Source: Nitrosopumilus sp. (GTDB lineage Archaea > Thermoproteota > Nitrososphaeria > Nitrososphaerales > Nitrosopumilaceae). From it: 64,000 bases of DNA. The position numbers and the translations under genes are program-made. The notes under the pieces were generated by a model that was not told where the DNA came from, made no database searches, and was given only the letters and a program-made list of their open reading frames with translations. The stretch lies in NCBI GenBank assembly GCA_965197525.1, contig OZ240211.1, positions 32,001 through 96,000 on the forward strand, read 5' to 3'. The stretch's first letter is position 1. The number at the start of each line of letters is the position of its first letter. Below, one piece after another: positions 348 to 20,566 of this stretch.

Positions 348-1344
348 TGCTTTTTCCGTACAAGAATTTGTTTATAATCAATACACTTATTGAAAATATT
401 CCTGACGCTAGTAATATTATCTCTATTGTTGCCATAAACGAATGTGAAAATACCTCATCTATAGAAATCGCATTTATCTCTGCAATAAAGTAACCATACG
501 AGAATACAAAATAGTTTGTGGCCCAATGAATTAACAATGCGGCTACAAACCCGTATCTTAGGTATGCCCAACCTAATATTATTCCTCCTGCCGTTGCTTG
601 CGCAAATTTGCCCTCACTCCACGACCCTTCAAATATGATGTGAGACATCCCAAACGCAACTCCTACCACAACAATTAGTATAATTGCTTTTTTTGAATTA
701 TCTATATTCAAAATGTGAGGGTTCCACAGACATCTGATGAAATATTTTATCGATGCTTTTTTTGAATATATCAAAAATAATGGAATTCCAATTAGTAAAA
801 GACGAAACCCAAATTCCTCTATTAGTGGTGCTAGACTAATATAAAAAAACTGAATCAGGTGATTCTCGGCATCTGCTAGTGGTAGTGGTGGTATGATCTC
901 TATGCCTAGTAATGAAGTCTGAACTAGGTCAATTATAGCTGAGATCAGTACTAGTATTGAGAGCCATTTTGTCACGCCTACCATATAGTTTAACTGAACG
1001 TGTGACTGTTGTTGCTCTCCTCGGGATATTATTCCAGAGAGTGTCTTTAGAAATCTCTGCCTCGGACCTAGTACTGCAATAACAAAAACTACAAGATAAA
1101 ACATCCATAAAACGACAAACGCGTCGCCAACACTGACGTTAATTGGTATCTGTTGTAGTATGGTGTCATTAAACAGGTGCAAGTCAGTAAATGGATATTC
1201 GTAATTGATATCTCCTCCTATCTCACTCTCAAAGACAACATAGATTCCTACCGGAAACGAGACTAGCAACAACCCAAAAACTACCGATAGTAGTGCAGTA
1301 AACGGAATCCCGATTAATTGGATTGAATTGTTTAAACTTTGCAA
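325..1344 (-). CDS. CPBP/CAAX-family intramembrane metalloprotease
   Basis: Multi-pass hydrophobic ORF with EEFGFR, FGMSH and HWATN motifs typical of CPBP (Abi) proteases. Confidence 0.85.
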   Translation of the reverse strand: MQSLNNSIQLIGIPFTALLSVVFGLLLVSFPVGIYVVFESEIGGDINYEYPFTDLHLFNDTILQQIPINVSVGDAFVVLWMFYLVVFVIAVLGPRQRFLKTLSGIISRGEQQQSHVQLNYMVGVTKWLSILVLISAIIDLVQTSLLGIEIIPPLPLADAENHLIQFFYISLAPLIEEFGFRLLLIGIPLFLIYSKKASIKYFIRCLWNPHILNIDNSKKAIILIVVVGVAFGMSHIIFEGSWSEGKFAQATAGGIILGWAYLRYGFVAALLIHWATNYFVFSYGYFIAEINAISIDEVFSHSFMATIEIILLASGIFSISVLIINKFLYGKSIKGLKQP

Positions 1345-1350
1345 TTTGTT

Positions 1351-1659
1351 TTAGTGTAGTTCGATTGTCTCCTCTGCAAATCCTAAATTAATCAAAGTCT
1401 CTTTAATTGAGTCTCTATGATCTCCCTGTAAGAAGATATAACCTTCCTTTGCAGTTCCACCACAGGCATACTTATTTTTGAGCTCTTTTGCCACAGTTTC
1501 TAGATTGTTTAATTTTGGATCCAATCCTTCTATCATGGTCCCTTTTTTTTTGAATCGTCTCGTCTCCAATCGAATAATAATTTTAGTACTATCTTTGGCT
1601 AATTCACCACAAGCACACAGATCTTCTGGTAAGCCACAAGTATTACAAATTACTGCCAT
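1351..1659 (-). CDS. sui1: Translation initiation factor SUI1/aIF1 (YciH family)
   Basis: MAVICNTCGLPEDLCAC zinc-ribbon N-terminus and LKNKYACGGTAKEGYIFLQGDHR SUI1 motif. Start reassigned to the ATG at 1659. Confidence 0.93.
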   Translation of the reverse strand: MAVICNTCGLPEDLCACGELAKDSTKIIIRLETRRFKKKGTMIEGLDPKLNNLETVAKELKNKYACGGTAKEGYIFLQGDHRDSIKETLINLGFAEETIELH

Positions 1660-1705
1660 CGGTTCTAAATAAATACAACTAATCATACTATTAAGTCTTC
1701 TTTGC

Positions 1706-1713
1706 CTACTGAA
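1706..1713 (+). repeat. Left 8-bp target-site duplication CTACTGAA of the outer TIR element
   Basis: An identical CTACTGAA lies at 20174-20181, directly outside the matching inverted repeat. Confidence 0.85.
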
Positions 1714-1747
1714 GGGAATTACATACTTGGATTACATTATACGTCAC

Positions 1748-1757
1748 TTATATATAA
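1748..1757 (+). promoter_or_regulatory. Candidate TATA box (TTATATATAA), probably the displaced tnpB promoter
   Basis: After removing the ISH3 composite in silico, the box ends 19 nt upstream of the tnpB ATG, a spacing consistent with a leaderless archaeal transcript. Confidence 0.5.
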
Positions 1758-1772
1758 TACACAGACTATTAA

Positions 1773-3092
1773 CAGTTAACCCAAATGTCTCAAATTTGCC
1801 TGTTTTAAACACTATAAATCGTAAAAGCTATAAGACACTTCAAATGATATTGCATAGTGAACACAAACCACCTGAAGCGCAATATTAAAAATAACATACG
1901 CCTATTTCAAGATACCATTTCTGAGATCCAAACACAAGTGGAACCCTGTGTTCACATATCCAAGGCTGCCAACGCCACATATGATATCACGCATTTTATT
2001 ACCTGTATGATGAATGGTACTCTGAATGATGCATCTGTAAGTGGAAAGGCAGGCGATACACGTTTTGTAGGTGATGACCACTGCAGGCCAAAGGGAACAA
2101 GGCATTATCCCACGGGCGAATGGAACAGACTGATACTTGCCAAGATGAGTAAAAATGAGATTGAGAAATGCCTTGAAGATACGGTTAGAACTCAGATTGC
2201 AGTATTGGACAAAAACAGGTGGATTCCTGACAAAGGCATAGATATAGCGATAGATATGCACAAGATACTCAGGCACGACAAGAAATCAACTGGCGATCTA
2301 ATACATACAAAAGACAAGGGGCACGCAGGATACTATGAGAGATACATAACTGCACAATCAGTCACTTCAGGAATCAGACTGAATCTATGTGCGTATCACA
2401 TGCCTGCACTTGAATCCATAGACAATTTCGTGCGTAAAATCCTCGTTTCATGCCAAAATATTGGAGTCAAGATCAGATATGTCTTACTTGATCGCGAATT
2501 CTTCAACGCCAAAATTCTAGACATGATTGACAAGATGGGATTGTATTACATCACACCATGCAAGAATACGGATACTGTGGTACGATGTATAAGAAAATTC
2601 GATAAAGAGAACGGTCCTGCAGAATCCAAAGTTGAGATCGCAGGATATGATGGTACAGTAGCTGTATACCATATGATCATAGTGACAAGAAAGAAGAGAA
2701 AAAAGATCAAGAATCGCGAGCTCCGGCCGGAGGAGAGATACATCGGATTTTGCTACTAATCAACCCAGTGTAGACGTTGAGATCTATGCCAGCAGATGGG
2801 GCATAGAGACCGGCTACAGAATGTTAGAAAATATTAGAGCCAAAACCAAAAGCAAGAATTCTGCTGCCAGAATGTTCTGTTTTGTGTATTCTCTGTTGTT
2901 TTATAATGCGTGGGTGATGATCAACACGCTCTTATGGCGATCATGCATGGTTGGCTACGCCTAAAAAAACCGATAATCGCGCAGGGGATGATCAAAATAG
3001 CATTGGATAGAACGGTAACGAGATGATAATTCCGCCAGAGCCTCCACCTGACGCGATCTGGCCTTAGAATATGGAGACATTTGGGTTAACTG
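1773..3092 (+). mobile_element. ISH3-family insertion sequence, copy A (1320 bp)
   Basis: Perfect 19-bp TIR CAGTTAACCCAAATGTCTC at 1773-1791 and 3074-3092, enclosing a DDE transposase gene. Confidence 0.92.
1857..2964 (+). pseudogene. ISH3/IS4-like DDE transposase with a +1 frameshift near 2750
   Basis: IAIDMH and VLLDREFF motifs are present. An extra T in GGATTTTGCT ends the frame at 2759, and the shifted frame continues ATNQPSVDVEIYASRWGIETGYRM to a stop at 2964, homologous to copy B. Confidence 0.88.
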
Positions 3093-3194
3093 ATCTATAA
3101 ACTTTATCTTAAATTCTACCATTTCTCGTCTGACATTCGCAAGCGCGCTTTTCAATTCTGCATTTTCTCTTCTCAGATCTGAGTTTTTGGCCAT
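3093..3194 (-). pseudogene. 5' remnant of a small coiled-coil gene truncated by the ISH3-A end
   Basis: ORF 3194-2961 reads MAKNSDLRRENAELKSALANVRREMVEFKIKFID and then runs straight into the IS terminal repeat sequence (QLTQMSP). Confidence 0.45.
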
Positions 3195-3344
3195 TTCTGA
3201 CTGTCGCCTTGATCGTTGACTTTATCATATTTGCCTTCCAAAAAACTACTATTTAGTAAGATTAGTTACAAAAATTTGGTAATACACAAAATAACCTACA
3301 TCAAATTTGACATAGAGATGCAACAAACTAATTTTCATGATTTA

Positions 3345-4357
3345 AACGCCTAAATGACGTGAACGCTTACCATTTTTGCGTCATTCCATCACGACAGCAC
3401 GTTGTAGCAGACGCGCCTGAGCAGCGGCCTTTGGACCCGCAGCGTCTTTGCGCAAATCATTGCAGTGAACATGACTTGAACGACGAGAACACGGACTATT
3501 ATACTGCACTGGTGGCACGTCTTCAAACTCTTCGGGGTTATTCTCCTGCCATCTGATCATCTCTGCCCTAGGACTGAATCCCCTTGCGACGTGGTTCTTG
3601 CAGGTGCAGATGACGGGTCTTCTGTCCGAGTCACGGATCATCTCGTAGTTCTTGTGTGCGTCATATCCTGCATCAAGCATCGCGCATCCGGTGCCGTCTG
3701 GAACATTCTCGAATCTCTCTCAGAATATGGGAGAGTCGTGCGCGTATCCTTTGGTGACTGCACAGGAGACGATCTTTCTTCCCTTGGAATCGACGATCAC
3801 GTATAATTTGACGAATTCGCGCCTGAAGACAAGTCCTCCTCTTGGCGTCTTCTTCCCAGTCTGCGTATTGGTTTATGGCAACCCCCGTGGAGTCGCCCAG
3901 AGGGAACCGCGCGCGTGGGATTCTGCCTGCCATTCCATTACTTTGTGCAGCCACCCATAATCTGCGATTACGGTGGCTGCGTGGCGCAGGCAGGATTTTG
4001 ATGGAGCGGTTTTTAATCCATACATGTGCAGTGTTCCCTGATGTGTCTGCAGGTATGAGACATGTTGACGGTATGAATGGCAGTAGAACTCCAGGTCTGT
4101 AAGGCATACCATGTATGGGATCATACGCACCTTGCCAGGGGGGTGTGGCAGATGGGTAGATTTCATACAGCAGGGCAGTGAGGGCCTTGATTTGCAATCT
4201 AGTTACGTGGCCCTCTCCCTCTCCCCCACCACTCCTCCATGTCTCGTATTCCTTGTAGTATCCGGCGGGGCGTTCCCATTTCTCGTCGTTGGGACTTGCT
4301 TTTGCATCGTTTCTTGCTCTTGCTGTGTTTCGTGTTTGTATCACGTTTTTTGTTCAT
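3345..4357 (-). pseudogene. Degenerate IS5/IS4-type (DDE_Tnp_1) transposase with several frameshifts
   Basis: Fragments across frames: FVKLYVIVDSKGRKIVSCAVTKGYAHDSP and MLDAGYDAHKNYEMIRDSDRRPVI (DAGYD catalytic motif). Confidence 0.75.
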
Positions 4358-4489
4358 CAAGCGGCGTGCGATCTGATCTTTGAGCTTTTCGCTGATTTTG
4401 AATCAAAAATTTGGACAACGCCGCTTGTAAATGTAAAAAAAGAATCATCAATGAGATTTTTTAAAATAGTATCTGAAAAACTAGATGCT

Positions 4490-7400
4490 TTAGGTGTTGT
4501 TCCCCATCACGTACTCTAATGCAACTCTAAACTCGTCTAGGGTTATCAGTCCTTTTACCACTAGTGGTGCAAGATCAGTCATGACCCAGGCAGGTATGTC
4601 TGCTCCCATGTGAGTCAGGCCCATAACAGCTAGCAGTTGATTGTCATCTGCTATCTCAGATTCAAATCCAGACCACATGCGCAGTACAAGCAATGCACGG
4701 TCATAGTCTGAGTCATCATCAAAAGTTTCAATCACAGGTTCTGGATTATCAGGTACTGCAGCAGGTGACCGGGGTTCTGGGTTCGCCTCTGCTACTTGGG
4801 GCTCTGGGTCTGCCTCCGTTGTTGCCTGGGGCTCTGGATCTACTTTTGAGGGTATGATGTTTAGCGCATCAACTATTATGACTATTGAAGACTGACGGTC
4901 TGCGTTCCAAGTTCTGATTACCATGTTGGTATTCCCTATCGCATCTGCAAACGTGATATCAAGTGCGACTGTCTTTTTATTGCGATCATCAGGGTCAGTT
5001 GATATAGTGATGGAGGCATCTGAGAACAGGTTATGAGGATCAACTATGTTGGTCTTGCCTCTGTTGTATTCCACGTATGTATCACTGTTCGTGTATGATA
5101 TGTCATCATCTTGCAGGTTCAGGTATACTGCAAAGTAGAGTATGTCAAGTCTGTCGTGTGCCGTAAAACTCATGGATATGGGTTGTTGGTCTACTGCAAC
5201 CTCCAGCGGCGTGGGATGATGGTTTACCCTGTTTTGAACATTGTAACTCTGGCCGTTTATCTCAAGTGTATCCACAGATGGTGGTGGTGCGGTACCTGAC
5301 TTTTTGGACTTGAGCAGTATGGTAGCATCAACAAATGATTCCAAAGGTTTGCCTGACTCGTCTACAACATTGCCTGTACCGCTGTCGTATGAGAGCGTGT
5401 CCCCACGAGACAGTGAACCGTCAAGTAGTAACGTAAGGGTGTTTGTGCCATTTCCGGTGATGGATTCCACTGTGACTGTACTACCAGAAGAAGAGGATAC
5501 TGTAAATCCGTTGAGGCCTGTTCCATTGATTTTGACTGGCTCAGAGAATGTCAGCGTTATAGAAGAGCCAGAGCCCCGTACAGATACAAGACGTGGAGCT
5601 ATGTCATTTACTGTAACTGATACCAGTTCAGATGCTGTGCCACCGTTACCATCCGAGACGGTCACATTAATGGAGTGTACACCGTCCTGGGACTGGTCAG
5701 GCCTCCAAGAGAACGAGCCTTCCCGGGTGATTGATGCACCACGTGGTATGTCCCCGTCAAGTGAGAATCTCAAAGAGTTAGGAGAGCCTTGATATATGTC
5801 GACGTCCCGGGCTGTTGCAGTAAACCTAAGCGTGTCTGTCTCATCTATGGTCTGTGCACCTATGGGATCAAGTCGTGGATTCTGATTTACCTCAGTTACA
5901 GTTATTGTGACGTTTTGCGAGTCTGTGCCTCCGTTACCATCAGAGACCTGTACGGTTATGGTGTGACGGCCATCCTGTGCCTCAGTTGGCGTCCATGAGA
6001 ACACTCCGGTGTTGGTATCCATCGCGGCACCGTCAGGTATCGGCTCGATAAGGGAGTATGTCCGGGCATCGTTATCATCAGGATCAGTTGCTTCAGCAGT
6101 GAATGTGAGGAGTGTAAGCTCATCTCCAGTCTGCGGTGAGATATTATTCAGTACGGGTAACTGGTTGACTGTGTAGGTCTCATTAGAGCCGATCACTGTC
6201 AGGTCAATCAGACTGTTGGTTGCAGTATCCTGTATGTCGTGGTTTTGTGCGATATCCAAGCCGATGGTTCCACTAGCGGTTACTGTGACTGTTACTCGGT
6301 ATGATGCACCGGAACCTGATACGCCAGATATTGTACCTGTACCGGAGCCCGTTACTGTAAAATCGGCATCATCCACATTGGTTACTGGTTCATCAAACGT
6401 GACAGCAAACACCAAGGTGGTATCAGTTGTGGATTGAGCTAGAGGGGTACCACGCAGTATGGAGGCAACGCGGGGCGGAGTGGTGTCTGTTACCGTGACT
6501 GTGTAGGTCTGATCAGAGCCGGTAGGTGCCAAGTTGGCCAAACGGTTGGTTGCGGTATCCTGTATGTCGTGGTTTTGTGCGATATCCAAGCCGATGGTTC
6601 CAACATTATCTACTGTGACTGTTACCCGGTATGATGCACCGGAACCTGATACGCCAGATATTGTGCCGGTGCCGGTGCCTGTTACTGTAAAATCGGCATC
6701 ATCCACATTGGTTACTGGTTCATCAAACGTGACAGCAAACACCAAGGTGGTATCAGTTGTGGATTGAGCTAGAGGGGTACCACGCAGTATGGAGGCAACG
6801 CGGGGCGGAGTGGTGTCTGTTACCGTAGTGCCTGTTACCGTAGTCTCTGTTACCGTGTAGGTCTGATCAGAGCCGGTAGGTGTCAGGTTGGCCAAACGGT
6901 TGGTTGCGGTATCCTGTATGTCGTGGTTTTGTGCGATATCCAAGCCGATGGTTCCAACATTATCTACTGTGACTGTTACTCGGTATGATGTACCGGAACC
7001 TGATACGCCAGATATTGTGCCGGTGCCGGTGCCTGTTACTGTAAAATCGGCATCATCCACATTGGTTACTGGTTCATCAAACGTGACAGCAAACACCAAG
7101 GTGGTATCAGTTGTGGATTGAGCTAGAGGGGTACCACGCAGTATGGAGGCAACGCGGGGCGGAGTGGTGTCTGTTACCGTGGGGGCGGTGGGATCAATAT
7201 CTTTGTTTTGCTCTACTTCCTTGTCAAGATATATGACATTGATGGCGCCGCGGTCTCGCCCGCTGTTATCATCTCGATAAGCACCAACTGCAAGGTCTGT
7301 CACCCCGTCGCCGTCAAGGTCGCCTATGGAAGCAACGGAGACGCCGAAATAGTCACTGTTTGATAGCGTGGGACCGTTTGTAGTGGAGTCGTTTATCTCT

Positions 7401-10400
7401 ACTGTGCTGTCTACCGTACCGTCAGTATTCATAAACATTATGTGTACTGCGCCGCGGTCTTGTCCGCTGTTATCATCTTGATAAGCACCAACTGCAAGGT
7501 CTGTCACCCCGTCGCCGTCAAAGTCGCCTATGGAAGCAACGGAGACGCCGAAATTGTCACTGTTTGATAGCGTGGGACCGTTTGTAGTGGAGTCGTTTAT
7601 CTCTACTGTGCTGTCTACCGTACCGTCAGTATTCATAAACATTATGTGTACTGCGCCGCGGTCTGATCCGCCGTTGTCATCTCCATAAGCACCAACTGCA
7701 AGGTCTGTCACCCCGTCGCCGTCAAGGTCGCCTATGGAAGCAACGGAGATGCCGAAATTATCATAGTTTAATAGCGTGGGACCGTTTGCAGTGGAGCTGT
7801 TTATCTCTACTGTGCTGTCTACCGTACCGTCAGTATTCATAAACATTATGTGTACTGCGCCGCGGTCTGATCCGCCGTTGTCATCTTGATAAGCACCAAC
7901 TGCAAGGTCTGTCACCCCGTCGCCGTCAAGGTCGCCTATGGAAGCAACGGAGATGCCGAAATTGTCACTGTTTGATAGCGTGGGACCGTTTGCAGTGGAG
8001 CTGTTTATCTCTACTGTGCTGTCTACCGTACCGTCAGTATTCATAAACATTATGTGTACTGCACCGCGCTCTGATCCGCCGCCGTTATCATCTTGATAAG
8101 CACCAACTGCAAGGTCTGTCACCCCGTCGCCGTCAAGGTCGCCTATGGCAGCAACGGAGATGCCGAAACGGTCACTGCTTGATAGCGTGGGACCGTTTGT
8201 AGTGGAGTCGTTTATCTCTACTGTGCTGTCTACCGTACCGTTTGTATTCATAAACATTATGTGTACTGCGCCGCTGTCTAGTTTGCTGTGGTCATCTCGA
8301 GCAGCACCAACTGCAAGGTCTGTCACCCCGTCGCCGTCAAGGTCGCCTATGGAAGTAACGGAGACGCCGAAACGGTCACTGTTTGATAGCGTGGGACCGT
8401 TTGTAGTGGAGTCGTTTATCTCTACTGTCCTGTCAACAATAAAGGCAACGCGGGGCGGAGTGGTGTCTGTTACCGTGGGAACTGACACATCGGTTACCGT
8501 GACGTCATAGGTGTCAAAAGCCGTGGCCCCGTCGTCGTCAGTAACAGTGAGGGTAAATGTAACTTGGGTGTCAGATGATACCTGTGACGCAGTGTACTGC
8601 AGGGTTGCTGCGTTACCGGACGTTATCGTAATAACAGATGTGTCATCCACGCTCCACGCGTATGTGGATATTGTACCATCAGAGTCAGAGGCAATACCCG
8701 TGAGCGTGCCGGATGCGCCCTCGTTGATTGTAGTGTCGCCGGTTATGCTGCTGATAGTTGGGGACTGGTTGGGGACTGGCACATTGTTTACCGTGACATC
8801 GTAGGTGGCAGATGCCGTGGCCCCGTCGTCGTCGGTAACAGTGAGGGTAAATGTAACTTGGGTGTCAGATGATACCTGTGATGCAGTGTATCGCAGGATA
8901 GCCGCATCGCCAGTCGTGATCGTGATAGTAGACGTATCATCCACGCTCCACAGGTACGAGGATATGTTGCCGTCAGAATCGGAGGCAATACCCGTGAGCG
9001 TGCCGGATGCGCCCTCGTTGATTGTAGTGTCGCCGGTTATGCTGCTGATAGTTGGGGACTGGTTGGGGACTGGCACATTGTTTACCGTGACATCGTAGGT
9101 GGCAGATGCCGTGGCCCCGTCGTCGTCGGTAACAGTGAGGGTAAATGTAACTTGGGTGTCAGATGATACCTGTGATGCAGTGTACTGCAGGGTTGCTGCG
9201 TTACCGGACGTTATCGTAATAACAGATGTGTCATCCACGCTCCACGCGTATGTGGATATTGTACCATCAGAGTCAGAGGCAGTGCCCGTGAGCGTGCCGG
9301 ATGCGCCCTCGTTGATTGTAGTGTCGCCGGTTATGCTGCTGATAGTTGGGGACTGGTTGGGGACTGGCACATTGTTTACCGTGACATCGTAGGTGGCAGA
9401 TGCCGTGGCCCCGTCGTCGTCGGTAACAGTGAGGGTAAATGTAACTTGGGTGTCAGATGATACCTGTGATGCAGTGTATCGCAGGATAGCCGCATCGCCA
9501 GTCGTGATCGTGATAGTAGACGTATCATCCACGCTCCACAGGTACGAGGATATGTTGCCGTCAGAATCGGAGGCAATACCCGTGAGCGTGCCGGATGCGC
9601 CCTCGTTGATTGTAGTGTCGCCGGTTATGCTGCTGATAGTTGGGGACTGGTTGGGGACTGGCACATTGTTTACCGTGACATCGTAGGTGGCAGATGCCGT
9701 GGCCCCGTCGTCGTCGGTAACAGTGAGGGTAAATGTAACTTGGGTGTCAGATGATACCTGTGATGCAGTGTACTGCAGGGTTGCTGCGTTACCGGACGTT
9801 ATCGTAATAACAGATGTGTCATCCACGCTCCACGCGTATGTGGATATTGTACCATCAGAGTCAGAGGCAGTGCCCGTGAGCGTGCCGGATGCGCCCTCGT
9901 TGATTGTAGTGTCGCCGGTTATGCTGCTGATAGTTGGGGACTGGTTGGGGACTGGCACATTGTTTACCGTGACATCGTAGGTGGCAGATGCCGTGGCCCC
10001 GTCGTCGTCGGTAACAGTGAGGGTAAATGTAACTTGGGTGTCAGATGATACCTGTGATGCAGTGTACTGCAGGGTTGCTGCGTTACCGGACGTTATCGTA
10101 TGTGGATATAACAGATAGTGTCATCCACGCTCCACGCGTATGTGGATATTGTACCATCAGAGTCAGAGGCAGTCAGTGAGGGTAAATGTAACTTGGGTGT
10201 CAGATGATACCTGTGATGCAGTGTACTGCAGGGTTGCTGCGTTACCGGACGTTATCGTAATAACAGATGTGTCATCCACGCTCCACGCGTATGTGGATAT
10301 TGTACCATCAGAGTGAGGCAGTGCCCGTGAGCGTGCCTGATGTGCCCTCGTTGATTGTAGTGTCGCCGGTTATGCTGCTGATAGTTGGGGACTGGTTGGG

Positions 10401-13400
10401 GACTGGCACATTGTTTACCGTGACATCGTAGGTGGCAGATGCCGTGGCCCCGTCGTCGTCGGTAACAGTGAGGGTAAATGTAACTTGGGTGTCCGAGGAT
10501 ACCTGTGATGCAGTGTATCGCAGGATAGCCGCATCGCCAGTCGTGATCGTGATAGTAGACGTATCATCCACGCTCCACAGGTACGAGGATATGTTGCCGT
10601 CAGAATCGGAGGCAATACCCGTGAGCGTGCCTGATGCGCCCTCGTTGATTGTAGTGTTACCGGTTATGCTGCTAATAGTTGGGGGCTGGTTGGGAACGGT
10701 AAATATCTCAATGTTCTTGTTCTGCGCAAGGGATCCGAATGCCCCGGGCGGGTTAAAGTCAAACATTACAGCAGGATCCGGGAGGAGAGGGATTACGTCC
10801 CTGCCTGGGCTCTTAAGGGCAGTGATCGTTGCCCCCCCCATCTCACCGTCAGGCGACAGTGAGTTTTGTGCAACATACTGGAGATCAGAGGATACGTCCG
10901 TACTCTGTGGCGCGTACCTGAAGGTAAGGATGTCGGTGCCGCTACCGGACAGATAGGGGGCCGTTCTGTGTTGTGGACTGACATCAAGCGTGAGTCGGGG
11001 CGTTCCGGTTACGGCCACTGGTTCTGAAAATTTGACTGTAATATCGACTGTCTGGCTTGATCCGTACGTGCCGTCTGCAGTGGTGGAGGACACGGCGCGG
11101 ATCAATACATCCTTGTCAAAGTACATGATGTGCACGGTGCCGTGATCCGTCCCGCCGTGGTCGTCGCCCCAAGCGCCTGCGGCAAGGTCCGGCACCCCGT
11201 CGCCGTCAAGGTCGCCTATTGCCGCGACGGATGCGCCAAAAAAGTCATCGTCTGACAGTACGGGGCCGTTTGCAGTGGAGTCGTTTATCTCGACTGTACC
11301 CTTTACCGTGCCGTTACCGTTCATGAACATGACGTGCACGGCGCCGTGATCCGTCCCGCCGTTGTCGTCGCCATCAGCGCCTACGGCAAGGTCCTGCACC
11401 CCGTCGCCGTCAAGGTCGCCTATTGCCGCGACGGATATGCCAAAATAGTCCTCGTCTGACAGTACGGGGCCGTTTGCAGTGGAGTCGTTTATCTCGACTG
11501 TACCCTTTACCGTGCCGTTACCGTTCATGAACATGACGTGCACGGCGCCGCGGCCCGGCCCGCCGTTGTAGTTGCCCCAAGCGCCTACGACAAGGTCTTG
11601 CACTCCGTCGCCGTCAAGGTCGCCTATTGCCGCGACGGATGCGCCAAAATAGTCCTCGTCTGACAGTACGGGGCCGTTTGCAGTGGAGTCGTTTATCTCA
11701 ACTGTGCCCTTTACAGAGCCGTTACCGTTCATGAACATGACGTGCACGGCGCCGCGGCCTTCCCCGCCGTTGCTGTCGCCATTAGCGCCTGCGGCAAGGT
11801 CCGGCACCCCGTCGCCGTCAAGGTCGCCTATTGCCGCGACGGATGTGCCAAAAAAATCATTGTTTGATAGTACGGGGCCGTTTGCAGTGGAGTTGTTTAT
11901 CTCGACTGTATCCTTTACAGAGCCGTTACCGTTCATGAACATGACGTGCACGGCGCCGTGATCCGTCCCGCCGTTGTCGTCGCCATTAGCGCCTACGGCA
12001 AGGTCCTGCACCCCGTCGCCGTCAAGGTCGCCTATTGCCGCGACGGATCTGCCAAAACCGTCATCGTCTGACAGTACGGGGCCGTTTGCAGTGGAGTTGT
12101 TTATCTCGACTGTGCCCTTTACAGAGCCGTTACCGTTCATGAACATGACGTGCACGGCGCCGCGCTTCTCCCCGCCGTCGTCATCTCCCTGAGCACCAAC
12201 TGCAAGGTCTGTCACCCCGTCGCCGTCAAGGTCGCCTATTGCCGCGACGGATCCGCCAAAATAGTCATAGTCTGACAGTACGGGGCTGTTTGCGGTGGAG
12301 TCGTTTATCTTGACCGTATCCTTTACAGAGCCGTTACCGTTCATGAACATGACGTGCACGGTGCCGTGATCCGTCCCGCCGTGGTCGTCGCCCCAAGCGC
12401 CTGCGGCAAGGTCCTGCACCCCGTCGCCGTCAAGGTCGCCTATTGCCGCGACGGATGCGCCAAAAAAGTCATCGTCTGACAGTACGGGGCCGTTTGCAGT
12501 GGAGTCGTTTATCTCGACCGTATCCTTTACAGAGCCGTCGCGGTTCATGAACATGACGTGCACGGCGCCGTGATCCGTCCCGCCGTTGTCGTCGCCATCA
12601 GCGCCTACGGCAAGGTCCTGCACCCCGTCGCCGTCAAGGTCGCCTATTGCCGCGACGGATATGCCAAAATAGTCCTCGTCTGACAGTACGGGGCCGTTTG
12701 CAGTGGAGTCGTTTATCTCGACTGTACCCTTTACCGTGCCGTTACCGTTCATGAACATGACGTGCACGGCGCCGCGGCCCGGCCCGCCGTTGTAGTTGCC
12801 CCAAGCGCCTACGACAAGGTCTTGCACTCCGTCGCCGTCAAGGTCGCCTATTGCCGCGACGGATGCGCCAAAATAGTCCTCGTCTGACAGTACGGGGCCG
12901 TTTGCAGTGGAGTCGTTTATCTCAACTGTGCCCTTTACAGAGCCGTTACCGTTCATGAACATGACGTGCACGGCGCCGCGGCCTTCCCCGCCGTTGCTGT
13001 CGCCATTAGCGCCTGCGGCAAGGTCCGGCACCCCGTCGCCGTCAAGGTCGCCTATTGCCGCGACGGATGTGCCAAAAAAATCATTGTTTGATAGTACGGG
13101 GCCGTTTGCAGTGGAGTTGTTTATCTCGACTGTATCCTTTACAGAGCCGTTACCGTTCATGAACATGACGTGCACGGCGCCGTGATCCGTCCCGCCGTTG
13201 TCGTCGCCATTAGCGCCTACGGCAAGGTCCTGCACCCCGTCGCCGTCAAGGTCGCCTATTGCCGCGACGGATCTGCCAAAACCGTCATCGTCTGACAGTA
13301 CGGGGCCGTTTGCAGTGGAGTTGTTTATCTCGACTGTGCCCTTTACAGAGCCGTTACCGTTCATGAACATGACGTGCACGGCGCCGCGCTTCTCCCCGCC

Positions 13401-16400
13401 GTCGTCATCTCCCTGAGCACCAACTGCAAGGTCTGTCACCCCGTCGCCGTCAAGGTCGCCTATTGCCGCGACGGATCCGCCAAAATAGTCATAGTCTGAC
13501 AGTACGGGGCTGTTTGCGGTGGAGTCGTTTATCTTGACCGTATCCTTTACAGAGCCGTTACCGTTCATGAACATGACGTGCACGGTGCCGTGATCCGTCC
13601 CGCCGTGGTCGTCGCCCCAAGCGCCTGCGGCAAGGTCTGTCACCCCGTCGCCGTCAAGGTCGCCTATTGCCGCGACGGATGCGCCAAAAAAGTCATCGTC
13701 TGACAGTACGGGGCCGTTTGCAGTGGAGTCGTTTATCTCGACCGTATCCTTTACAGAGCCGTCGCGGTTCATGAACATGACGTGCACGGCGCCGTGATCC
13801 GTCCCGCCGTTGTCGTCGCCATCAGCGCCTACGGCAAGGTCCTGCACCCCGTCGCCGTCAAGGTCGCCTATTGCCGCGACGGATATGCCAAAATAGTCCT
13901 CGTCTGACAGTACGGGGCCGTTTGCAGTGGAGTCGTTTATCTCGACTGTACCCTTTACCGTGCCGTTACCGTTCATGAACATGACGTGCACGGCGCCGCG
14001 GCCCGGCCCGCCGTTGTAGTTGCCCCAAGCGCCTACGACAAGGTCTTGCACTCCGTCGCCGTCAAGGTCGCCTATTGCCGCGACGGATGCGCCAAAATAG
14101 TCCTCGTCTGACAGTACGGGGCCGTTTGCAGTGGAGTCGTTTATCTCGACTGTACCCTTTACCGTGCCGTTACCGTTCATGAACATGACGTGCACGGCGC
14201 CGCGGCCTTCCCCGCCGTTGCTGTCGCCATTAGCGCCTGCGGCAAGGTCCGGCACCCCGTCGCCGTCAAGGTCGCCTATTGCCGCGACGGATGTGCCAAA
14301 AAAATCATTGTTTGATAGTACGGGGCCGTTTGCAGTGGAGTTGTTTATCTCGACTGTATCCTTTACAGAGCCGTTACCGTTCATGAACATGACGTGCACG
14401 GCGCCGTGATCCGTCCCGCCGTTGTCGTCGCCATTAGCGCCTACGGCAAGGTCCTGCACCCCGTCGCCGTCAAGGTCGCCTATTGCCGCGACGGATCTGC
14501 CAAAACCGTCATCGTCTGACAGTACGGGGCCGTTTGCAGTGGAGTTGTTTATCTCGACCGTATCCTTTACAGAGCCGTTACCGTTCATGAACATGACGTG
14601 CACGGCGCCGCGCTTCTCCCCGCCGTCGTCATCTCCCTGAGCACCAACTGCAAGGTCTGTCACCCCGTCGCCGTCAAGGTCGCCTATTGCCGCGACGGAT
14701 CCGCCAAAATAGTCATAGTCTGACAGTACGGGGCTGTTTGCGGTGGAGTCGTTTATCTCTACTGTGTTGTCGACAGAGCCGTTTCCATTGGTTTTCATGC
14801 CATTAATGTGGATTATGTGTACGGCGCCGCGGTCTGATCCGCCCTCGTCATCTTGATAAGCACCAACTGCAAGGTCTGTCACCCCGTCGCCGTCAAGGTC
14901 GCCTATGGAAGCAACGGAGACGCCGAAACTGTCATCGTCTGATAGCGTGGGACCGTTTGTAGTGGAATCGTTTATCTCTACTGTGCTGTTTATCGTACCG
15001 TCAGTATTCATAAACATTATGTGTACGGCGCCGCGCTCTGATCCGCCGTCGCCGTCATCTTGATAAGCACCAACTGCAAGGTCTGTCACCCCGTCGCCGT
15101 CAAGGTCGCCTATGGAAGCAACGGAGACGCCGAAATAGTCAACGTTTGATAGCGTGGGACCGTTTGCAGTGGAGTCGTTTATCTCTACTGTGCTGTTTAT
15201 CGTACCGTCAGTATTCATAAACATTATGTGTACGGCGCCGCGGTCTCGTCCGCGGTCGTCATCTCGATTAGCACCAACTGCAAGGTCTGTCACCCCGTCG
15301 CCGTCAAGGTCGCCTATGGAAGCAACGGAGGCGCCGAAATAGTCAACGTTTGATAGCGTGGGACCGTTTGCAGTGGAGTCGTTTATCTCTACTGTGCTGT
15401 CTACCGTACCGTCAGTATTCATAAACATTATGTGTACTGCGCCGCGGTCTGATCCGCTGTCGTCATCTCGATTAGCACCAACTGCAAGGTCTGTCACCCC
15501 GTCGCCGTCAAGGTCGCCTATGGAAGCAACGGAGGCGCCGAAGCGGTCAACGTCTGATAGCGTGGGACCGTTTGCAGTGGAGTCGTTTATCTCTACTGTG
15601 CTGTCTACCGTACCGTCAGTATTCATAAACATTATGTGTACTGCGCCGCGGTCTCGTCCGCCGCCGTCATCTCGAGCAGCACCAACTGCAAGGTCTGTCA
15701 CCCCGTCGCCGTCAAGGTCGCCTATGGAAGCAACGGAGACGCCGAAACGGTCATTGTCTGATAGCGTGGGACCGTTTGCAGTGGAGCTGTTTATCTCTAC
15801 TGTGCTGTCTACCGTACCGTCAGTATTCATAAACATTATGTGTACTGCGCCGCGGTCTGATCCGCCGCCGTCATCTCGAGCAGCACCAACTGCAAGGTCT
15901 GTCACCCCGTCGCCGTCAAGGTCGCCTATGGGAGTAACGGAGAAGCCGAAGCGGTCAACGTCTGATAGCGTGGGACCGTTTGCAGTGGAGCTGTTTATCT
16001 CCACTACGGAGTTTGGATACGCGTTGTTTGATGCGTACGCAGTATCCACACCAAAGCTTAGATGTATGTCGTGTATGCCAGGGGTGTGAACCGATAGCAC
16101 GAGGCTTGCGATGCCGTCGCACTGATAGTCCTCAAACGTAATGATCCCATCATGTGCTGTAGCATCCAGTATGGAGTCGTTGCCGCACAATACCCCCACA
16201 AACCCCACGTCGTCAGGAGAAGAGTCCCCAAACGTGGTGCCGTTTATTACAGAGATTGTTAGGTTATGGGTACCGTATGTCCTAAAGTTTATCGTCCACT
16301 CCCCGCCCACTACAGGATAGGACTGCGGGTTGAGTACGTCGATTCGCCCGTACTCACGGTTCAGAAAACTGGCTGCCGACTGCTGTATCTCTGAGGTAGT

Positions 16401-16566
16401 TACCGTTACAGGTGTGGGGGGGGGGGCTGTCAGTTATCGTGATCACAGGGTCAGTCATATAGGCAGACGCAAAACTGACATCATAGTACTGGAACAGTAA
16501 CAAAGATACAGTCACTACCACAATGGCCATGACTGTCATAGTATGATGAATTCTTAATGTATTCAT
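4490..16566 (-). CDS. Giant secreted or surface protein (~4000 aa if joined), split in this sequence into ORFs 16354-16566, 10308-16310 and 4490-9958. Order: signal/TM, N-domain, 24 FG-GAP repeats, Ig-like, ~7-8 PKD/cadherin-like repeats, 6 FG-GAP, 3 Ig-like, 2 cadherin/He_PIG-like, conserved C-terminal domain
   Basis: Repeat content is continuous across the breaks. The breaks are an 11-C tract at 16416-16426 and a scrambled repeat junction at ~10085-10320. GDLDGDGVTDLAVGA is the FG-GAP calcium-binding motif. The N-terminus is hydrophobic. Confidence 0.8.
6170..7185 (-). repeat. Three near-identical Ig-like repeats (DTTPPRVASILRGTPLAQSTTDTTLVFAVTFDEPV...)
   Basis: Three copies are visible in the DNA and protein, with spacings of ~354 and ~318 bp. 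Confidence 0.9.
7230..8440 (-). repeat. Six FG-GAP repeats (~204 bp unit)
   Basis: Six GD(L/F)DGDGVTDLAVGA motifs in ORF 4490-9958. Confidence 0.92.
8500..10700 (-). repeat. 294-bp tandem PKD/cadherin-like repeats alternating between two variants (588-bp dimer)
   Basis: Shadow ORFs start at 8511, 8805, 9099, 9393 and 9687. The variants are SGNAATLQY and TGDAAILRY. Confidence 0.92.
11130..16010 (-). repeat. 24 FG-GAP repeats: one block of 6 plus a 1224-bp six-repeat block present three times
   Basis: Near-identical shadow ORFs at 11683, 12907 and 14131 give a 1224-bp period. 24 DLDGDGV motifs were counted in the translation. Confidence 0.92.
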
Positions 16567-16628
16567 ATCACATTCCCACCATTATCATACAATAATCCAC
16601 AGGGACTATTTAAAAAGATTGTATATTC

Positions 16629-16758
16629 AACTCTGTTTCCTAATTACATGCAACACAGACACCCATCTGTGTGATTTTGCTTATGTCATTGCCTTCCCTC
16701 CTACACTGCGGTCTTTGTGGCGGGTTTTAGACTGATACACTATCTTTGGTGTGCCGTA
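16629..16758 (-). mobile_element. ~130-bp remnant of the 3' end of the IS5-family element found at 45.3-46.6 kb
   Basis: Near-identical to 45289-45418 (AACTCTGTTTCCTAATTACATGCAACACAGAC...TATCTTTGGTGTGCCGTA). Confidence 0.85.
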
Positions 16759-16870
16759 GTATTCCCATTGGATAATAGCTCATTTTGACTATACACATTT
16801 TGTATGTGTTTACATCGTACTTGGAAAAATAAGAGATGTTCCCACAGTGTGTTAAACTTATGCCTAAATC

Positions 16871-18590
16871 CAGTTAACCCAAAAGTGAGCCTAATCTAAC
16901 GTCTAAAAATCAATGCGGTGCTTTCAAATATCGTCATCTTTGAGAAAAAGACAGGCTTGATGGCTATTGCGTATAGTTTAAAGATCCGTCTGCAGACAAG
17001 ACCGAACATGACAGCCTAATCTTCAGAAAAAGTACTGGCTTTTCTGATACTAGATGTATCAAACATTTTAAAAATATGAACAGTTTTTTATCCTATCTAT
17101 TTGTACATCTAACAGAACGTCTGAAATTTGATGTTTGATGTACGTCGTAGATGTCTAGTACGAACACAGCGATCCGATGTCAGGCGGCGTCTTATAGCGC
17201 GGTTCGTGCCGGGCAAGCACGGTTATTATCTCGATTCGCAGATGTGTCTGCGTCATGCGTTTTGTGTTCTTGTCTGCCGGCTTGGATGTCGCAGACATCA
17301 TCGCATTTATCATCACCCAAGCATTGAACATTACCACAGAGTACAAAAAGCAGAATATCCTGGATACGGTCTTGTTGCTGCGCGTCCGCGCCCTCATCTC
17401 TTCTATCATGCGGTATCCCGTCTCTATGCCCCATCTCTTGGAGTACAGTTCGGCATCCTGAATAGGCATGTTGGTGGCAAATCCGATGAACTCTTCTTCT
17501 GGACGTGTATGCACATCGTCTGATTTTTCCCCACTGCTGCTTTTCTTCCTCTTCCTCTTCTTCTTCTTCTTACGCTCGGTTATGATTATGGTATACTTTA
17601 CTGACACTCCGTCGGCATTTGTGATGTATAGACTCGATACCGCCTTCCGTCTTCCCGCAACAAATTCTGCGATTGCATCCACTACGACATCTGTGTTCTT
17701 GCACGGTACAAGGTAGCCCACATCCATCTTCTCAAGGGCCTCAAAGACACGAGTGGAAAAGAATTCGCGGTCAAGCAATACGGCCCTGATATTACATCCC
17801 ACACTGCGGCATATTGCAATCAGGTCGCGTACAAAACCAGGAACATCCTCAAGTGCTCCCATGTGTAGGACTCCCAGTACAAGACGCGGTCCGCCGTCAA
17901 CGCACTGCGCTGTGATGTACCTCTCAAACGTCCCGGTTCCATTATTTCTTCTTGAACGCGTCAGATCGATGCCGGGTTCTTTGTCCCATCGCGGGATCAG
18001 GTGCATATCTATTGCAATTACCATGCCTTCGTTTGAAACCTGTCCGAGTGCGCGCACCGCATCAAGCTGCAGGCGCACAGAATTGGCAAAATCTTTCATC
18101 ATCTCAGTCCTGTCAATCTTGGCAAGAAGTCCGTTGAACCATTCGTCAGTGGGTGATGATGCCCGATGATGCGTTCCTGCACCCGTACTCCACTCAATAT
18201 GATTCCGTACCGCCGAAGCCGTGGCCCCTACAGAAGAGCCGTTGACTGTAGCCCACATCATGCCCCTGTTAAAGTCGTCAAGCCCGTATGTCCTGTTGGG
18301 GCTGTCCGATATTTTGATGCACGAGCAGATGCTGTCCTCGGCTGCCCTTACTGCTGCATCACTGCGCCTTTTATGCTGGCCGAACCATGATGATGAGAGA
18401 CGAATGTTTTGATTTGACACGTCATATTGTCATAAAAGTTATTTTTATGGTATTGTATTAGGCATTGCATAGAATTATGTCAAAATTTGTTCAGGCATGA
18501 AGTGGTGCTGGTACACAACAAAGGCAGTTGTTAATTTCATATGTGTTAAGGGAAATGATTCATATGAATTGCTTACTTTTGGGTTAACTG
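16871..18590 (-). mobile_element. ISH3-family insertion sequence, copy B (1720 bp)
   Basis: TIR CAGTTAACCCAAAAGT(G/A)AGC, 19/20 identical, at 16871-16890 and 18571-18590. Confidence 0.92.
17155..18420 (-). CDS. ISH3-family DDE transposase, apparently intact
   Basis: Catalytic D, D and E in IAIDMHLIP, VLLDREFFS and RWGIETGYR. Uninterrupted 421-aa ORF. Confidence 0.92.
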   Translation of the reverse strand: MSNQNIRLSSSWFGQHKRRSDAAVRAAEDSICSCIKISDSPNRTYGLDDFNRGMMWATVNGSSVGATASAVRNHIEWSTGAGTHHRASSPTDEWFNGLLAKIDRTEMMKDFANSVRLQLDAVRALGQVSNEGMVIAIDMHLIPRWDKEPGIDLTRSRRNNGTGTFERYITAQCVDGGPRLVLGVLHMGALEDVPGFVRDLIAICRSVGCNIRAVLLDREFFSTRVFEALEKMDVGYLVPCKNTDVVVDAIAEFVAGRRKAVSSLYITNADGVSVKYTIIITERKKKKKRKRKKSSSGEKSDDVHTRPEEEFIGFATNMPIQDAELYSKRWGIETGYRMIEEMRARTRSNKTVSRIFCFLYSVVMFNAWVMINAMMSATSKPADKNTKRMTQTHLRIEIITVLARHEPRYKTPPDIGSLCSY

Positions 18591-18599
18591 ATTAACTGG

Positions 18600-20168
18600 A
18601 TGGAAAAAGAAATAGAAGATTTTATTTATAGAACAGTGATTGTAAAACCAAGGCAGACAAAAGAACTGTCATTGAAGGCACGCAGGATTGCAAACTTTCA
18701 GACGTATTTTTTCAACATGGGCGTAGAGGCAGGACTGGTTGAAAAATATGACAAAATCAAGACAAGCCGTACCATTACTGACATACATCACACCATGCCA
18801 TGGAGCAACAGATATCACACCAATGTGGCAACAACTGCGTTCCAACAGGGGCATGATACGGCAGACAAACATTTGAAATCCTGCGCAAAAAAACGCAGAG
18901 TACGAAACTGGGCAAAAAAGACTGGTGACAAGAACCACAACTGGCACACGTCATTTAAAAATCTCAAACCAAACAAATGGATTGACAGAAACAGTTTGTT
19001 CAGAAACGCCAAAAATGCAAAACATGCATCCATAACAGTAAACGGTAAGCATCCCTCGCTAAGGATGGGAAAGTGGAAAAAACTGTACATGAATCTGCCT
19101 GGTATGGGTCAGGTGGAGCTGTTGTCGTCTTTGAATAATCTTCCAAAGCAACTGGCATGTGAAAGAGACAAAAACAGCACTAGCAAATTCTACCAGACCA
19201 ACATTGTATCATACAGGCTTGTAGAGAACACCAAAAAAATCACTGTCAATACAAACGATTCGAACCGCACGTTTGAGATCCATCTGACACTAAAAATACA
19301 GAGACCTAAAAATACGGATCGTACAGTCGTATGCGGAATAGACATGGGGGTTAAGAGATCCCTAGTCGTTCATGACGGAATAAATGCCGATTTTTACAGG
19401 ACACCTTATTCCTGTAGGAGAAAGAAAGACGATGTAGTCTCAGAACAACAGTCAAAAAGAGACGGCCACAAACTGCATAGTAACAGATGGAAAAAAGAGG
19501 ATCGCAAACTGAAGAGGATGAAGAAAACACTCAACAACAGAAGAACCGAGCACAATAATTTCCTTGCCAAACAGATTGTGATGAGAACAGGAGTGATAGT
19601 CATGGAAAAACTAAACATTGGCAATATGACTGCAAAAAATGAAAAGCGGAAAAGCGGCCTTAACAGGGAGATTTACGGGGCAGGTATGGGAAGAATGGGG
19701 GATAGAATAAAAATGACTGCCGAAAACCACGGAACCAAAACGCTTGAGATTGTTCCGCATTATACCAGCATAACGTGTAGTAAGTGCAATATGATCAACA
19801 GCAACTCTAGAACTACCAGGGATGCGTTTCAATGCGTATACTGTGGATTTTTGTGCGATGCAGACGATAACGCCAGCACAAACATCAGACATTACGGACT
19901 TCCGTGCATACGAAGGCTCCCGCTTGTAGACAGATATGGAAACTACAGGTGTGACAGCATGGAAAATATTATTTTAGCTAATAAAAATGGCACATCTAAT
20001 AGTGTCAGTGTTATTAGGGGCGGTAGGGATTATCGTCACAAGACAGAAGAATCAAAATATGGCTTACACCATGTTGTTTCTAAAAAAGACGGCAAGAACC
20101 AAGCTGTGAATGATTTGTTGGACTGTCAGAAAAAAACCTTGGTGTATAAATGTAACCTAGGTATATAA
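18600..20168 (+). CDS. tnpB: TnpB/Cas12f-like RNA-guided endonuclease (RuvC plus zinc finger), 522 aa
   Basis: RuvC-I VCGIDMG, RuvC-II VIVMEKLNI, zinc finger TSITCSKC...CVYCG and RuvC-III DADDNASTNI. All three acidic residues are present, followed by a ~90-aa extra C-terminal tail. The stop codon lies inside the right TIR. Confidence 0.92.
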   Translation: MEKEIEDFIYRTVIVKPRQTKELSLKARRIANFQTYFFNMGVEAGLVEKYDKIKTSRTITDIHHTMPWSNRYHTNVATTAFQQGHDTADKHLKSCAKKRRVRNWAKKTGDKNHNWHTSFKNLKPNKWIDRNSLFRNAKNAKHASITVNGKHPSLRMGKWKKLYMNLPGMGQVELLSSLNNLPKQLACERDKNSTSKFYQTNIVSYRLVENTKKITVNTNDSNRTFEIHLTLKIQRPKNTDRTVVCGIDMGVKRSLVVHDGINADFYRTPYSCRRKKDDVVSEQQSKRDGHKLHSNRWKKEDRKLKRMKKTLNNRRTEHNNFLAKQIVMRTGVIVMEKLNIGNMTAKNEKRKSGLNREIYGAGMGRMGDRIKMTAENHGTKTLEIVPHYTSITCSKCNMINSNSRTTRDAFQCVYCGFLCDADDNASTNIRHYGLPCIRRLPLVDRYGNYRCDSMENIILANKNGTSNSVSVIRGGRDYRHKTEESKYGLHHVVSKKDGKNQAVNDLLDCQKKTLVYKCNLGI

Positions 20169-20173
20169 TTCCC

Positions 20174-20181
20174 CTACTGAA
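20174..20181 (+). repeat. Right 8-bp target-site duplication CTACTGAA
   Basis: Matches 1706-1713. Confidence 0.85.
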
Positions 20182-20227
20182 TATTATCACAAACAGCTTT
20201 TTTAAATGGCGATACAAACCATTGATT

Positions 20228-20566
20228 ATGTCTGATGATCTCCAGAAGCGAGCAGCTGATATGTTGTTAAATGGTGCGACATTACTCGGTGAGCCTTGTC
20301 CATACTGTAACGGTGTTAGAGTTCTGAATCACGGATATGCGTTATGTACTAGTTGTGGCAGCGAACCTGAATCAAAGGATGTTCATTCTCCTTCTACTCC
20401 AACAAATCATAATCCTCCTCCTCCTCCTCCTATTGATGATGTTTTACAACAAAAGATAGACTCTCTATCAAAAGAACTGGCATCAGAAAGAGATCATCAA
20501 AGACAACAAAATATCCTAAAAACAATAAATTTGCTGTTAGATACGGCAAATAGGATTAAAAGCTGA
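20228..20566 (+). CDS. Autoantigen p27 (Sjogren/scleroderma autoantigen 1)-like zinc-ribbon protein
   Basis: AADMLLNGATLLGEPCPYC...CTSC matches the family pattern. ATG at 20228. Confidence 0.8.
   Translation: MSDDLQKRAADMLLNGATLLGEPCPYCNGVRVLNHGYALCTSCGSEPESKDVHSPSTPTNHNPPPPPPIDDVLQQKIDSLSKELASERDHQRQQNILKTINLLLDTANRIKS

Follow-up and report, generated by a model that had tools for sequence, protein, structure and literature searches.

TnpB-encoding elements of the IS200/IS605 and IS607 groups of insertion sequences (ISs) have neither inverted terminal repeats nor target-site duplications, and a fixed target motif doubles as the target-adjacent motif (TAM). Another arrangement was reported by Altae-Tran et al. 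(2023, PNAS; PMC10691335), whose main text describes six TnpB branches (DDE-1 to DDE-6) with DDE transposases, all of which have inverted terminal repeats. According to the same text, solo TnpBs have almost the same ends as transposase-carrying copies, which implies mobilization in trans. The DDE-associated branches have been summarized since (PMC13565253), and a 2026 review gives the DDE partners of TnpB as ISL2, IS630 and IS1031. In eukaryotes, Fanzor1 and Fanzor2 form nuclease-only, non-autonomous elements with terminal inverted repeats and target-site duplications (bioRxiv 10.1101/2023.08.09.552727, Nucleic Acids Research 2023; Bao and Jurka 2013). Here we analyse a tnpB element in bases 32001-96000 of a Nitrosopumilus sp. 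genome, a 64,000-nucleotide stretch that we call the window; the genome (G000) is a single contig of 2.21 Mb and is 99% complete. Judged from its sequence and that of its relatives, the unit in the window is very probably a non-autonomous element of the IS1595 family that carries TnpB as cargo and is moved in trans.

A tnpB-only unit with inverted repeats and an 8-bp duplication

An earlier note on this DNA had pointed to a pair of inverted repeats, each abutted by the same 8-mer, around a compact tnpB unit without a transposase, and direct reading of the sequence bears out this description. The left arm (1714-1738) is complementary to the right arm (20149-20173) at 21 of 25 positions, and CTACTGAA directly abuts both arms, at 1706-1713 and at 20174-20181. 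Excision of 1773-18590 together with one ATTAA leaves exactly 1637 bp, consisting of repeat, TATA-like box, tnpB and repeat. The only open reading frame (ORF) of this unit is tnpB, the TAA stop of which (20166-20168) lies inside the right repeat. No IS1595-type transposase (PF12760 plus PF12762) is encoded within the element, which can therefore be classified only as a non-autonomous IS1595 derivative.

By itself, a 25-nt inverted repeat with 84% identity is unexceptional in 22 kb, where it ranks 8 of 295 pairs; the repeat in the window is significant because of the exact 8-mer that abuts it and because the arrangement is replicated elsewhere. The features of the element are as follows.

1706-1713, no strand: left 8-bp target-site duplication CTACTGAA, identical to 20174-20181 and abutting the left repeat
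1714-1738, plus strand: left terminal inverted repeat, with outer 13 nt GGGAATTACATAC that are near-invariant family-wide
1739-1772, plus strand: 5′ leader of the element with the TATA-like box (about 1747-1758), split from tnpB by a nested insert
18600-20168, plus strand: tnpB, 522 amino acids, with the TAA stop inside the right repeat (Pfam, NCBIfam and alignment)
19984-20173, plus strand: omegaRNA-like structured region, with a paired core at about 20017-20162, shared in part with the tnpB 3′ end and with the inner half of the right repeat
20149-20173, minus strand: right terminal inverted repeat (direct reading)
20174-20181, no strand: right 8-bp target-site duplication CTACTGAA (direct reading)

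Copies in the genome and the wider family

If the unit is mobile, other copies should carry the same ends with different duplications, as the earlier note had proposed to check. Four further intact copies in G000 do so: all are 1637 bp long and 95.1-98.5% identical, have the same two slightly different ends, and are flanked by their own perfect 8-bp duplications (TAAAAAAA, AATCAATT, AATTCAAT and TGATTTAG), all of which differ. In intact copies the same 5′ leader continues uninterrupted to the ATG. The genome also contains a 386-bp internal-deletion derivative (duplication GTTAACAT), a decayed 2943-bp copy (duplication TTGATTAC) and a second tnpB-only element of 1350 bp that has the same termini and encodes a protein that is just 31% identical.

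MITEs (miniature inverted-repeat transposable elements) with GGGRATTAYATA termini were found as well. One is 165 bp long (genome 891809-891973, duplication TTTCATAT) and another 115 bp (L062:158-272, in genome G100, duplication AAAATTAA); as both have perfect 8-bp duplications, the ends work without any gene between them.

Of 201 genomes searched, 8 encode this TnpB or a relative of it: G000 and 7 others from its taxonomic family, in which the identity is 28-34%. ENA metagenome contigs contain relatives with 41-80% identity. Where the ends are readable, as for relatives with 23-34% identity in 6 other genomes of the archaeal family, the units are tnpB-only and 1.4-1.75 kb in length. Hardly any variation is seen in their outer 13 nt (GGGAATTATATAC...GTATATAATTCCC) while TnpB diverges down to ~23% identity, and the inner half of the repeat is subfamily-specific but symmetrical. 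In every subfamily the tnpB ORF reaches a TAA inside the terminal TATAATTCCC. The flanking 8-mers, A/T-rich at most positions, match perfectly within each element and differ from one element to the next (27 distinct elements on one list, more than 30 in all), and in five genomes the pattern of the termini exceeds a reversed control by a factor of 3.5 to 15. Homologues of the window tnpB are thus bounded by inverted repeats and duplications and not by IS605-type hairpins. At one further locus (L079:2181-2498, an ENA contig), an 80%-identical TnpB element lies beside a 105-amino-acid fragment with an IS1595 DDE domain; the flanking 8-mers of this element are mismatched, which suggests a rearrangement at the site.

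These data bear directly on a conventional reading, namely that the window contains an ordinary IS200/IS605 (IS1341-group) or IS607 tnpB-only element with repeats and 8-mers that arose by chance. The protein is indeed a bona fide TnpB with a canonical catalytic arrangement, and tnpB-only elements are usually of such a kind. However, chance would have to account for more than 30 independent elements in which perfect and different 8-bp duplications abut conserved 25-bp inverted repeats, and no fixed 4-5-nt target motif is present 5′ of the left end. In G000, moreover, neither a Y1 TnpA (PF01797) nor a resolvase-type serine recombinase (PF00239) was matched, although control genomes were matched in both searches. 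The repeats and duplications, together with the missing 5′ motif and the lack of a PF01797 match in G000, place the element outside IS200/IS605, and the repeats and duplications and the lack of a PF00239 match place it outside IS607; we regard the probability of the conventional reading as practically negligible. Because G000 has more than 40 tnpB copies overall, and searches for IS605- and IS607-type transposases came up empty there, a default label such as 'IS200/IS605 family accessory protein' is misleading here.

The insertion site in relatives

Two host genes flank the element.

1351-1686, minus strand: SUI1 translation initiation factor (sui1), which adjoins the p27-like gene in 11 of 11 relatives
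20222-20566, plus strand: p27-like zinc-ribbon protein, which adjoins sui1 in 11 of 11 relatives

The two genes are adjacent, with no insert and no repeats, in all 11 same-genus genomes examined, so these relatives do not already carry the repeats here. Their sui1/p27 junction can be aligned without a break to the reconstructed empty site, although the intergenic DNA is too diverged for the 8-mer to be read. On the three points that the earlier note had named as possible refutations, the outcome favoured its reading: the repeats are missing from this locus in relatives, homologous tnpB copies have inverted repeats and duplications in place of IS605-type ends, and relatives have the site empty. 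A contig from run X5, which represents a closer relative, has 22 nt identical to window 1684-1705, then 8 nt, and then continues from 20182 onward. This site is unoccupied and of the right length. The single CTACTGAA that the earlier note had proposed to look for is not present there, however: the 8 nt are CCGATTAC (3 of 8 identical), which is far more change than in the flanks. The difference could reflect a footprint, a scar left by repair or simply sequence variation. No match to the unoccupied site was found in an exact-pattern scan of JGI metagenomes.

IS1595 transposases share the ends of the TnpB elements

An AT-rich 8-bp duplication is the hallmark of the IS1595 family (ISfinder), the members of which have terminal inverted repeats of ~25 bp that start with GG. 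Their transposases are about 310-335 amino acids in length and combine an N-terminal zinc ribbon with a PF12762 DDE domain. Siguier, Gagnevin and Chandler are said to have described the family in 2009, including members with passenger genes and derived MITEs.

We identified transposases of this family between the same ends that bound the TnpB elements. The element at L058 (genome G100; 179-3015) is 2837 bp long, is bounded by these termini and by a perfect duplication of AAAATTAT, and encodes a 319-amino-acid transposase (PF12762 plus PF12760; 173 bits on NF033547, cut-off 75). At L101/L113, a complete 2046-bp IS1595 element has the duplication TTTGGTTT. At L111 (genome G065), an IS1595 element abuts a TnpB element end to end (..TAATTCCC, 6 nt, GGGAATTAC..), with CTAGACCC on both outer sides of the pair. 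A homologous pair of transposase and TnpB at L112 (genome G145) has unrelated flanks, decayed inner ends and the outer duplication GATACCGG; the two composites are 79-83% identical and occupy different sites. From these composites and their outer duplications it follows that the ends are used by an IS1595 transposase, and that tnpB can travel with the transposase or alone. The autonomous transposase with matching ends that the earlier note had proposed to look for is therefore found at these four loci, and its assignment of the ends to DDE-type elements, made on the basis of inverted repeats with 8-9-bp duplications, can be narrowed to IS1595 through the shared termini. The element at L058 also has a passenger, a 454-amino-acid N6/N4 DNA methyltransferase fused to an HNH nuclease.

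The association extends beyond the complete elements. At least 14 loci in 7 genomes have the characteristic terminus upstream of a transposase start, 35-60 bp away in 12 of them and about 170-190 bp away in L100 and L106. A family-wide search with the G000 homologue as the query recovered the IS1595 transposase group in 13 of 201 genomes, compared with 7 of the 8 genomes that have the TnpB clade, although these genomes are kin and the figures are not an independent statistic. A more distant IS1595 group in genome G135 likewise makes 8-bp duplications.

G000 itself encodes an intact IS1595 transposase of 333 amino acids (genome 615175-616176; 154 bits on NF033547), which keeps all 36 columns that are invariant in 15 relatives and has the terminus GGGGATTATATAC about 1 kb away. 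A 1332-bp element of a second tnpB family is nested about 520 bp past this gene. Around a second IS1595-type DDE gene of the genome (338527-338940), no repeat or duplication pair is detectable. With the same ends around IS1595 transposases and an intact transposase in the same genome, the sequences support the proposal in the earlier note that the element is non-autonomous and moved in trans.

What the shared ends lead us to infer is that the element is moved by an IS1595 transposase. On this view, the unit (1714-1772 plus 18596-20173) is one IS1595-family copy, with tnpB and an omegaRNA-like scaffold as its only cargo. It would most likely be mobilized by an IS1595-family DDE transposase made elsewhere, for which the 333-amino-acid gene at 615175-616176 is the candidate in G000. 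The transposase would bind the terminal inverted repeats of ~25 bp and insert the element by a staggered 8-bp cut in AT-rich DNA, giving rise to the 8-bp duplication. The copy in the window came to lie between sui1 and the p27-like gene, and an ISH3-like composite later split it between promoter and ATG. TnpB may help the element to persist or to spread by cleaving sites that are unoccupied, with an omegaRNA guide presumably read from the flank beyond the right end.

Several observations count against this interpretation. The IS1595 element of G000 has a recognizable left terminus only; its right end was searched for and not found. In G110, a genome of the same genus, at least 7 TnpB copies stand beside only a partial match to the IS1595 transposase. 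Several close homologues of the transposase (L064 outside the composite, L065, L072, L076 and others) have no terminus within the DNA examined. The inner halves of the repeats differ between TnpB-only and transposase-bearing elements, and the terminus beside the G000 transposase matches at 18 of 25 positions. The link to the transposase consists of shared ends and co-occurrence, and no transposition was observed.

Two of these points, the undetectable right end in G000 and the many TnpB copies of G110 beside a partial transposase match, would also fit a rival explanation in which another DDE transposase that makes 8-bp duplications, for example an IS6-like system, moves the element and the likeness to IS1595 ends is coincidental or secondary. 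About 35 G000 copies of a second tnpB-only family, which have IS6-like ends (GGTTCTGTTGGG...) and 8-bp duplications, can be cited in its favour. The IS6-like ends are unrelated in sequence to those of the window element, however, and the outer 13 nt of the latter recur identically upstream of IS1595 transposases (the loci counted above) and around two complete IS1595 elements. In addition, two composites of transposase and TnpB have moved as units by these ends. We consider this explanation quite unlikely.

The second family is of interest in its own right. The 1332-bp tnpB-only element lies at genome 616697-618028 and in about 35 other places, with a fragment at window 46735-46894. Its protein is 21-23% identical to that of the first family, its inverted ends of ~26 bp are IS6-like (GGTTCTGTTGGGTTAACGGG...), and its duplications are 8 bp long (for example, AGATTAAG and AGTTGTAT). 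Both tnpB families of G000 therefore ride on elements with terminal inverted repeats and target-site duplications.

It is also conceivable that TnpB, as a nuclease with an RNase-H-fold RuvC domain, itself catalyses or joins the movement, for example through a staggered cut, so that no separate transposase is needed. More than 30 elements carry tnpB alone, the ORF ends at a stop inside the terminal repeat in all subfamilies, the termini are nearly invariant despite divergence of TnpB to about 23% identity, and some genomes with many copies have no obviously intact partner transposase. Against this, the same ends and perfect duplications occur on elements that lack tnpB, namely L058, L101/L113 and the MITEs of 115-165 bp, and the ends therefore work without TnpB in cis. 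The AT-rich 8-bp duplication and these ends are, moreover, fully explained by IS1595. To our knowledge, no TnpB is known to transpose DNA, and we judge this explanation very improbable. Mobilization in trans by an IS1595 transposase thus remains our preferred reading.

One candidate for an autonomous element with TnpB and an rve-type transposase (L017 in genome G135; 2742 bp, perfect duplication GAATGCCC) was rejected by BLAST against L024 and L043: it consists of a 1494-bp TnpB element and a nested 1242-bp rve-type IS with unrelated ends. This IS3/IS481-like IS (HTH_21 plus rve; L017:2244-3485) is highly expanded in the sister genus, with 24-69 matches per genome (G065 and G100 included). In the copy nested in the TnpB element, the ORF of the IS reads on for 38-44 codons, antisense to the 3′ end of the TnpB element.

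The TnpB protein and an omegaRNA-like 3′ region

The protein has the Pfam domains OrfB_IS605 and Cas12f1-like_TNB (PF01385 and PF07282, both above their cut-offs) and scores 119.5 bits on NF040570, guided_TnpB (cut-off 100). Its RuvC triad D248, E336 and D422 aligns with D191, E278 and D361 of ISDra2 TnpB, with the glutamate in the canonical position. These three residues and the zinc-finger cysteines C393, C396, C412 and C415 (CxxC..CxxC) are invariant in 14 members of the clade. Along the ORF, codon positions 1 and 2 are better conserved than position 3, which implies purifying selection on tnpB.

Over the last ~150 nt, conservation at third positions increases from about 0.5 to 0.73-0.82. 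For the last ~190 nt of the element, six helices are predicted by RNAalifold, the last of which is partly formed by the inner half of the right repeat and is followed by ~11 unpaired nt (ATATAATTCCC) before the element ends. Among eight sequences, compensatory changes are found in 10 of 43 pairs, compared with 3.3 ± 1.5 in shuffles. A covariance model built from these eight matches over its full length, and stops precisely at the right end of the element, in subfamilies with only 23-30% protein identity (L081, L011, L013, L034, L014, L061, L023, L033 and L037). It gives no match in L058, which lacks tnpB, and the repeat alone scores only about 13 bits.

A contig from a sponge metatranscriptome spans 19988-20173 (95-99% identity) and then continues for 251 nt into a different flank. 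The depth of this 3′-region contig is above that of three contigs over the tnpB ORF, a comparison made in RNA runs that are all contigs, from which no RNA start, end, strand or expression level can be read and in which DNA carry-over is possible. In RNA run X1, parts of the examined stretch are without cover. Taken together, the modelled fold and its recurrence indicate that the 3′ region is likely to be an omegaRNA scaffold, with a guide that would start with the duplicated 8-mer.

The evidence for the RNA is not all of one kind. In a 15-sequence alignment, 28 of 43 pairs show compensatory changes compared with 13.7 ± 2.1, and 93.7% of cells pair compared with 75.6%, but this alignment was fitted to the model and leans towards structure, and the region is also protein-coding. 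The fold of the single sequence is no better than those of shuffles (z = -0.95), and an Rfam scan of the region found no match. Furthermore, across 21 oriented elements, no TAM-like 4-5-nt motif is seen in the 12 nt that lie upstream of the duplication; the only signal is weak, a G at -1 and a T at +1.

Because IS1595 duplications are variable, the rule by which a fixed target motif serves as the TAM cannot apply to these elements. One could imagine that TnpB is wired functionally into the DDE transposon, with a relaxed or unconventional TAM or with action on a transposition intermediate. In such a scheme the inner terminal repeat would supply the last omegaRNA helix, the duplicated 8-mer would form the start of the guide, and the nuclease would restore or spread IS1595-type elements. 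If true, the wiring of this TnpB would differ from the IS605/IS607 logic in which the target motif of the transposase is the TAM. The different 8-mer at the unoccupied X5 site could be a trace of cutting by TnpB and repair. On the available sequences we hold the scheme as a whole to be unlikely. The variable duplications make the IS1595-TnpB family well suited to testing how TnpBs on DDE transposons have their guide and TAM determined, and its compact, apparently intact nucleases with a delimitable scaffold are candidate genome-editing reagents.

A nested composite transposon and the host

The insertion that divides the element is a composite transposon foreign to it.

1773-18590, no strand: nested composite transposon, with the 5-bp duplication ATTAA at 1768-1772 and 18591-18595
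1773-3092, no strand: IS-A, ISH3-like, with a degenerate transposase, inverted relative to IS-B
3093-16870, minus strand: composite cargo between IS-A and IS-B, two giant FG-GAP/PKD repeat proteins
16871-18590, minus strand: IS-B, ISH3-like, with a 421-amino-acid transposase (119.8 bits on NF033541, below the model cut-off)

IS-A and IS-B are diverged copies, the outer ends of which (CAGTTAACCCAAA...) are adjoined by the ATTAA duplication. The composite puts 16.8 kb between tnpB and its TATA box and leaves the ORF intact; because the TATA box is split off, the tnpB in the window is probably not expressed from its own promoter. The cargo consists of surface-type proteins with FG-GAP, PKD and Ig repeats, encoded at 4490-9958 and 10308-16310 on the minus strand, which possibly represent a single gene that has been divided. 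A fragment of a decayed rve-type transposase, interrupted by several in-frame stops, is located about 2 kb downstream of the TnpB element, at window 22048-22602 (minus strand; genome 54048-54602).

As G000 encodes an archaeal AmoA, it derives from an ammonia-oxidising archaeon, and the public runs that contain its sequence include a sponge metatranscriptome. The host is apparently a sponge-associated member of the ammonia-oxidising Nitrososphaeria, for which the adhesin-like cargo of the composite would be well suited.

Comparison with known systems

Comparable elements are those of the IS1341 group (IS200/IS605): like the window element, they are units of 1.3-1.7 kb with tnpB as the sole gene, a 3′ structured RNA (predicted in the window element) and numerous copies in each genome. 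IS1341-group elements, however, have subterminal hairpins, insert 3′ of a fixed 4-5-nt motif (the TAM) and lack terminal inverted repeats and target-site duplications, none of which holds for the window element. The likeness to the IS1595 family comprises AT-rich 8-bp duplications, inverted repeats, passenger genes and short non-autonomous derivatives; in contrast to that family, the window element has no transposase, and its passenger is an RNA-guided nuclease with its predicted RNA. The family offers a natural series from transposase-only elements through abutting transposase and TnpB elements and a fused unit to TnpB-only units and MITEs.

The earlier note saw in this locus a prokaryotic parallel to the capture of Fanzor by eukaryotic DDE transposons. 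An element with terminal inverted repeats and tnpB as cargo is indeed present, but the concept is not new, DDE-borne TnpBs having been reported in the main text of PMC10691335. The resemblance extends to the guide RNA: in insect-virus Fanzor1 the terminal inverted repeat is part of the last stem of the scaffold, as predicted here for helix 6. The window element differs from Fanzor in its prokaryotic host, an archaeon by its AmoA, and in E336, which aligns with ISDra2 E278 in the canonical position and is not relocated next to the zinc finger; it therefore stands outside the Fanzor group.

Whereas the arrangement of a DDE-borne TnpB has been known since 2023, the IS1595 partner and the archaeal host group are unreported as far as we found. 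IS1595 and ISH4 are absent from the main text of PMC10691335, and our literature search returned no paper that connects TnpB either with IS1595, as its cargo, or with the genomes of thaumarchaea. As far as that main text goes, the DDE-TnpBs of Altae-Tran et al. share with the window element a tnpB placed within the symmetrical inverted repeats of a DDE transposon, with its 3′ end beside the transposon end, and share with the wider family solo copies that have the same ends as transposase-bearing copies (here L111 and L112). The differences lie in the partner, since IS630, ISL2 and IS1031 make short, largely fixed duplications whereas those of IS1595 are variable and 8 bp long, in the ammonia-oxidising archaeal host, and in the position of the tnpB stop and the last predicted RNA helix inside the repeat. 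The element thus adds IS1595 and the ammonia-oxidising Nitrososphaeria to the short list of TnpB-carrying DDE transposons.

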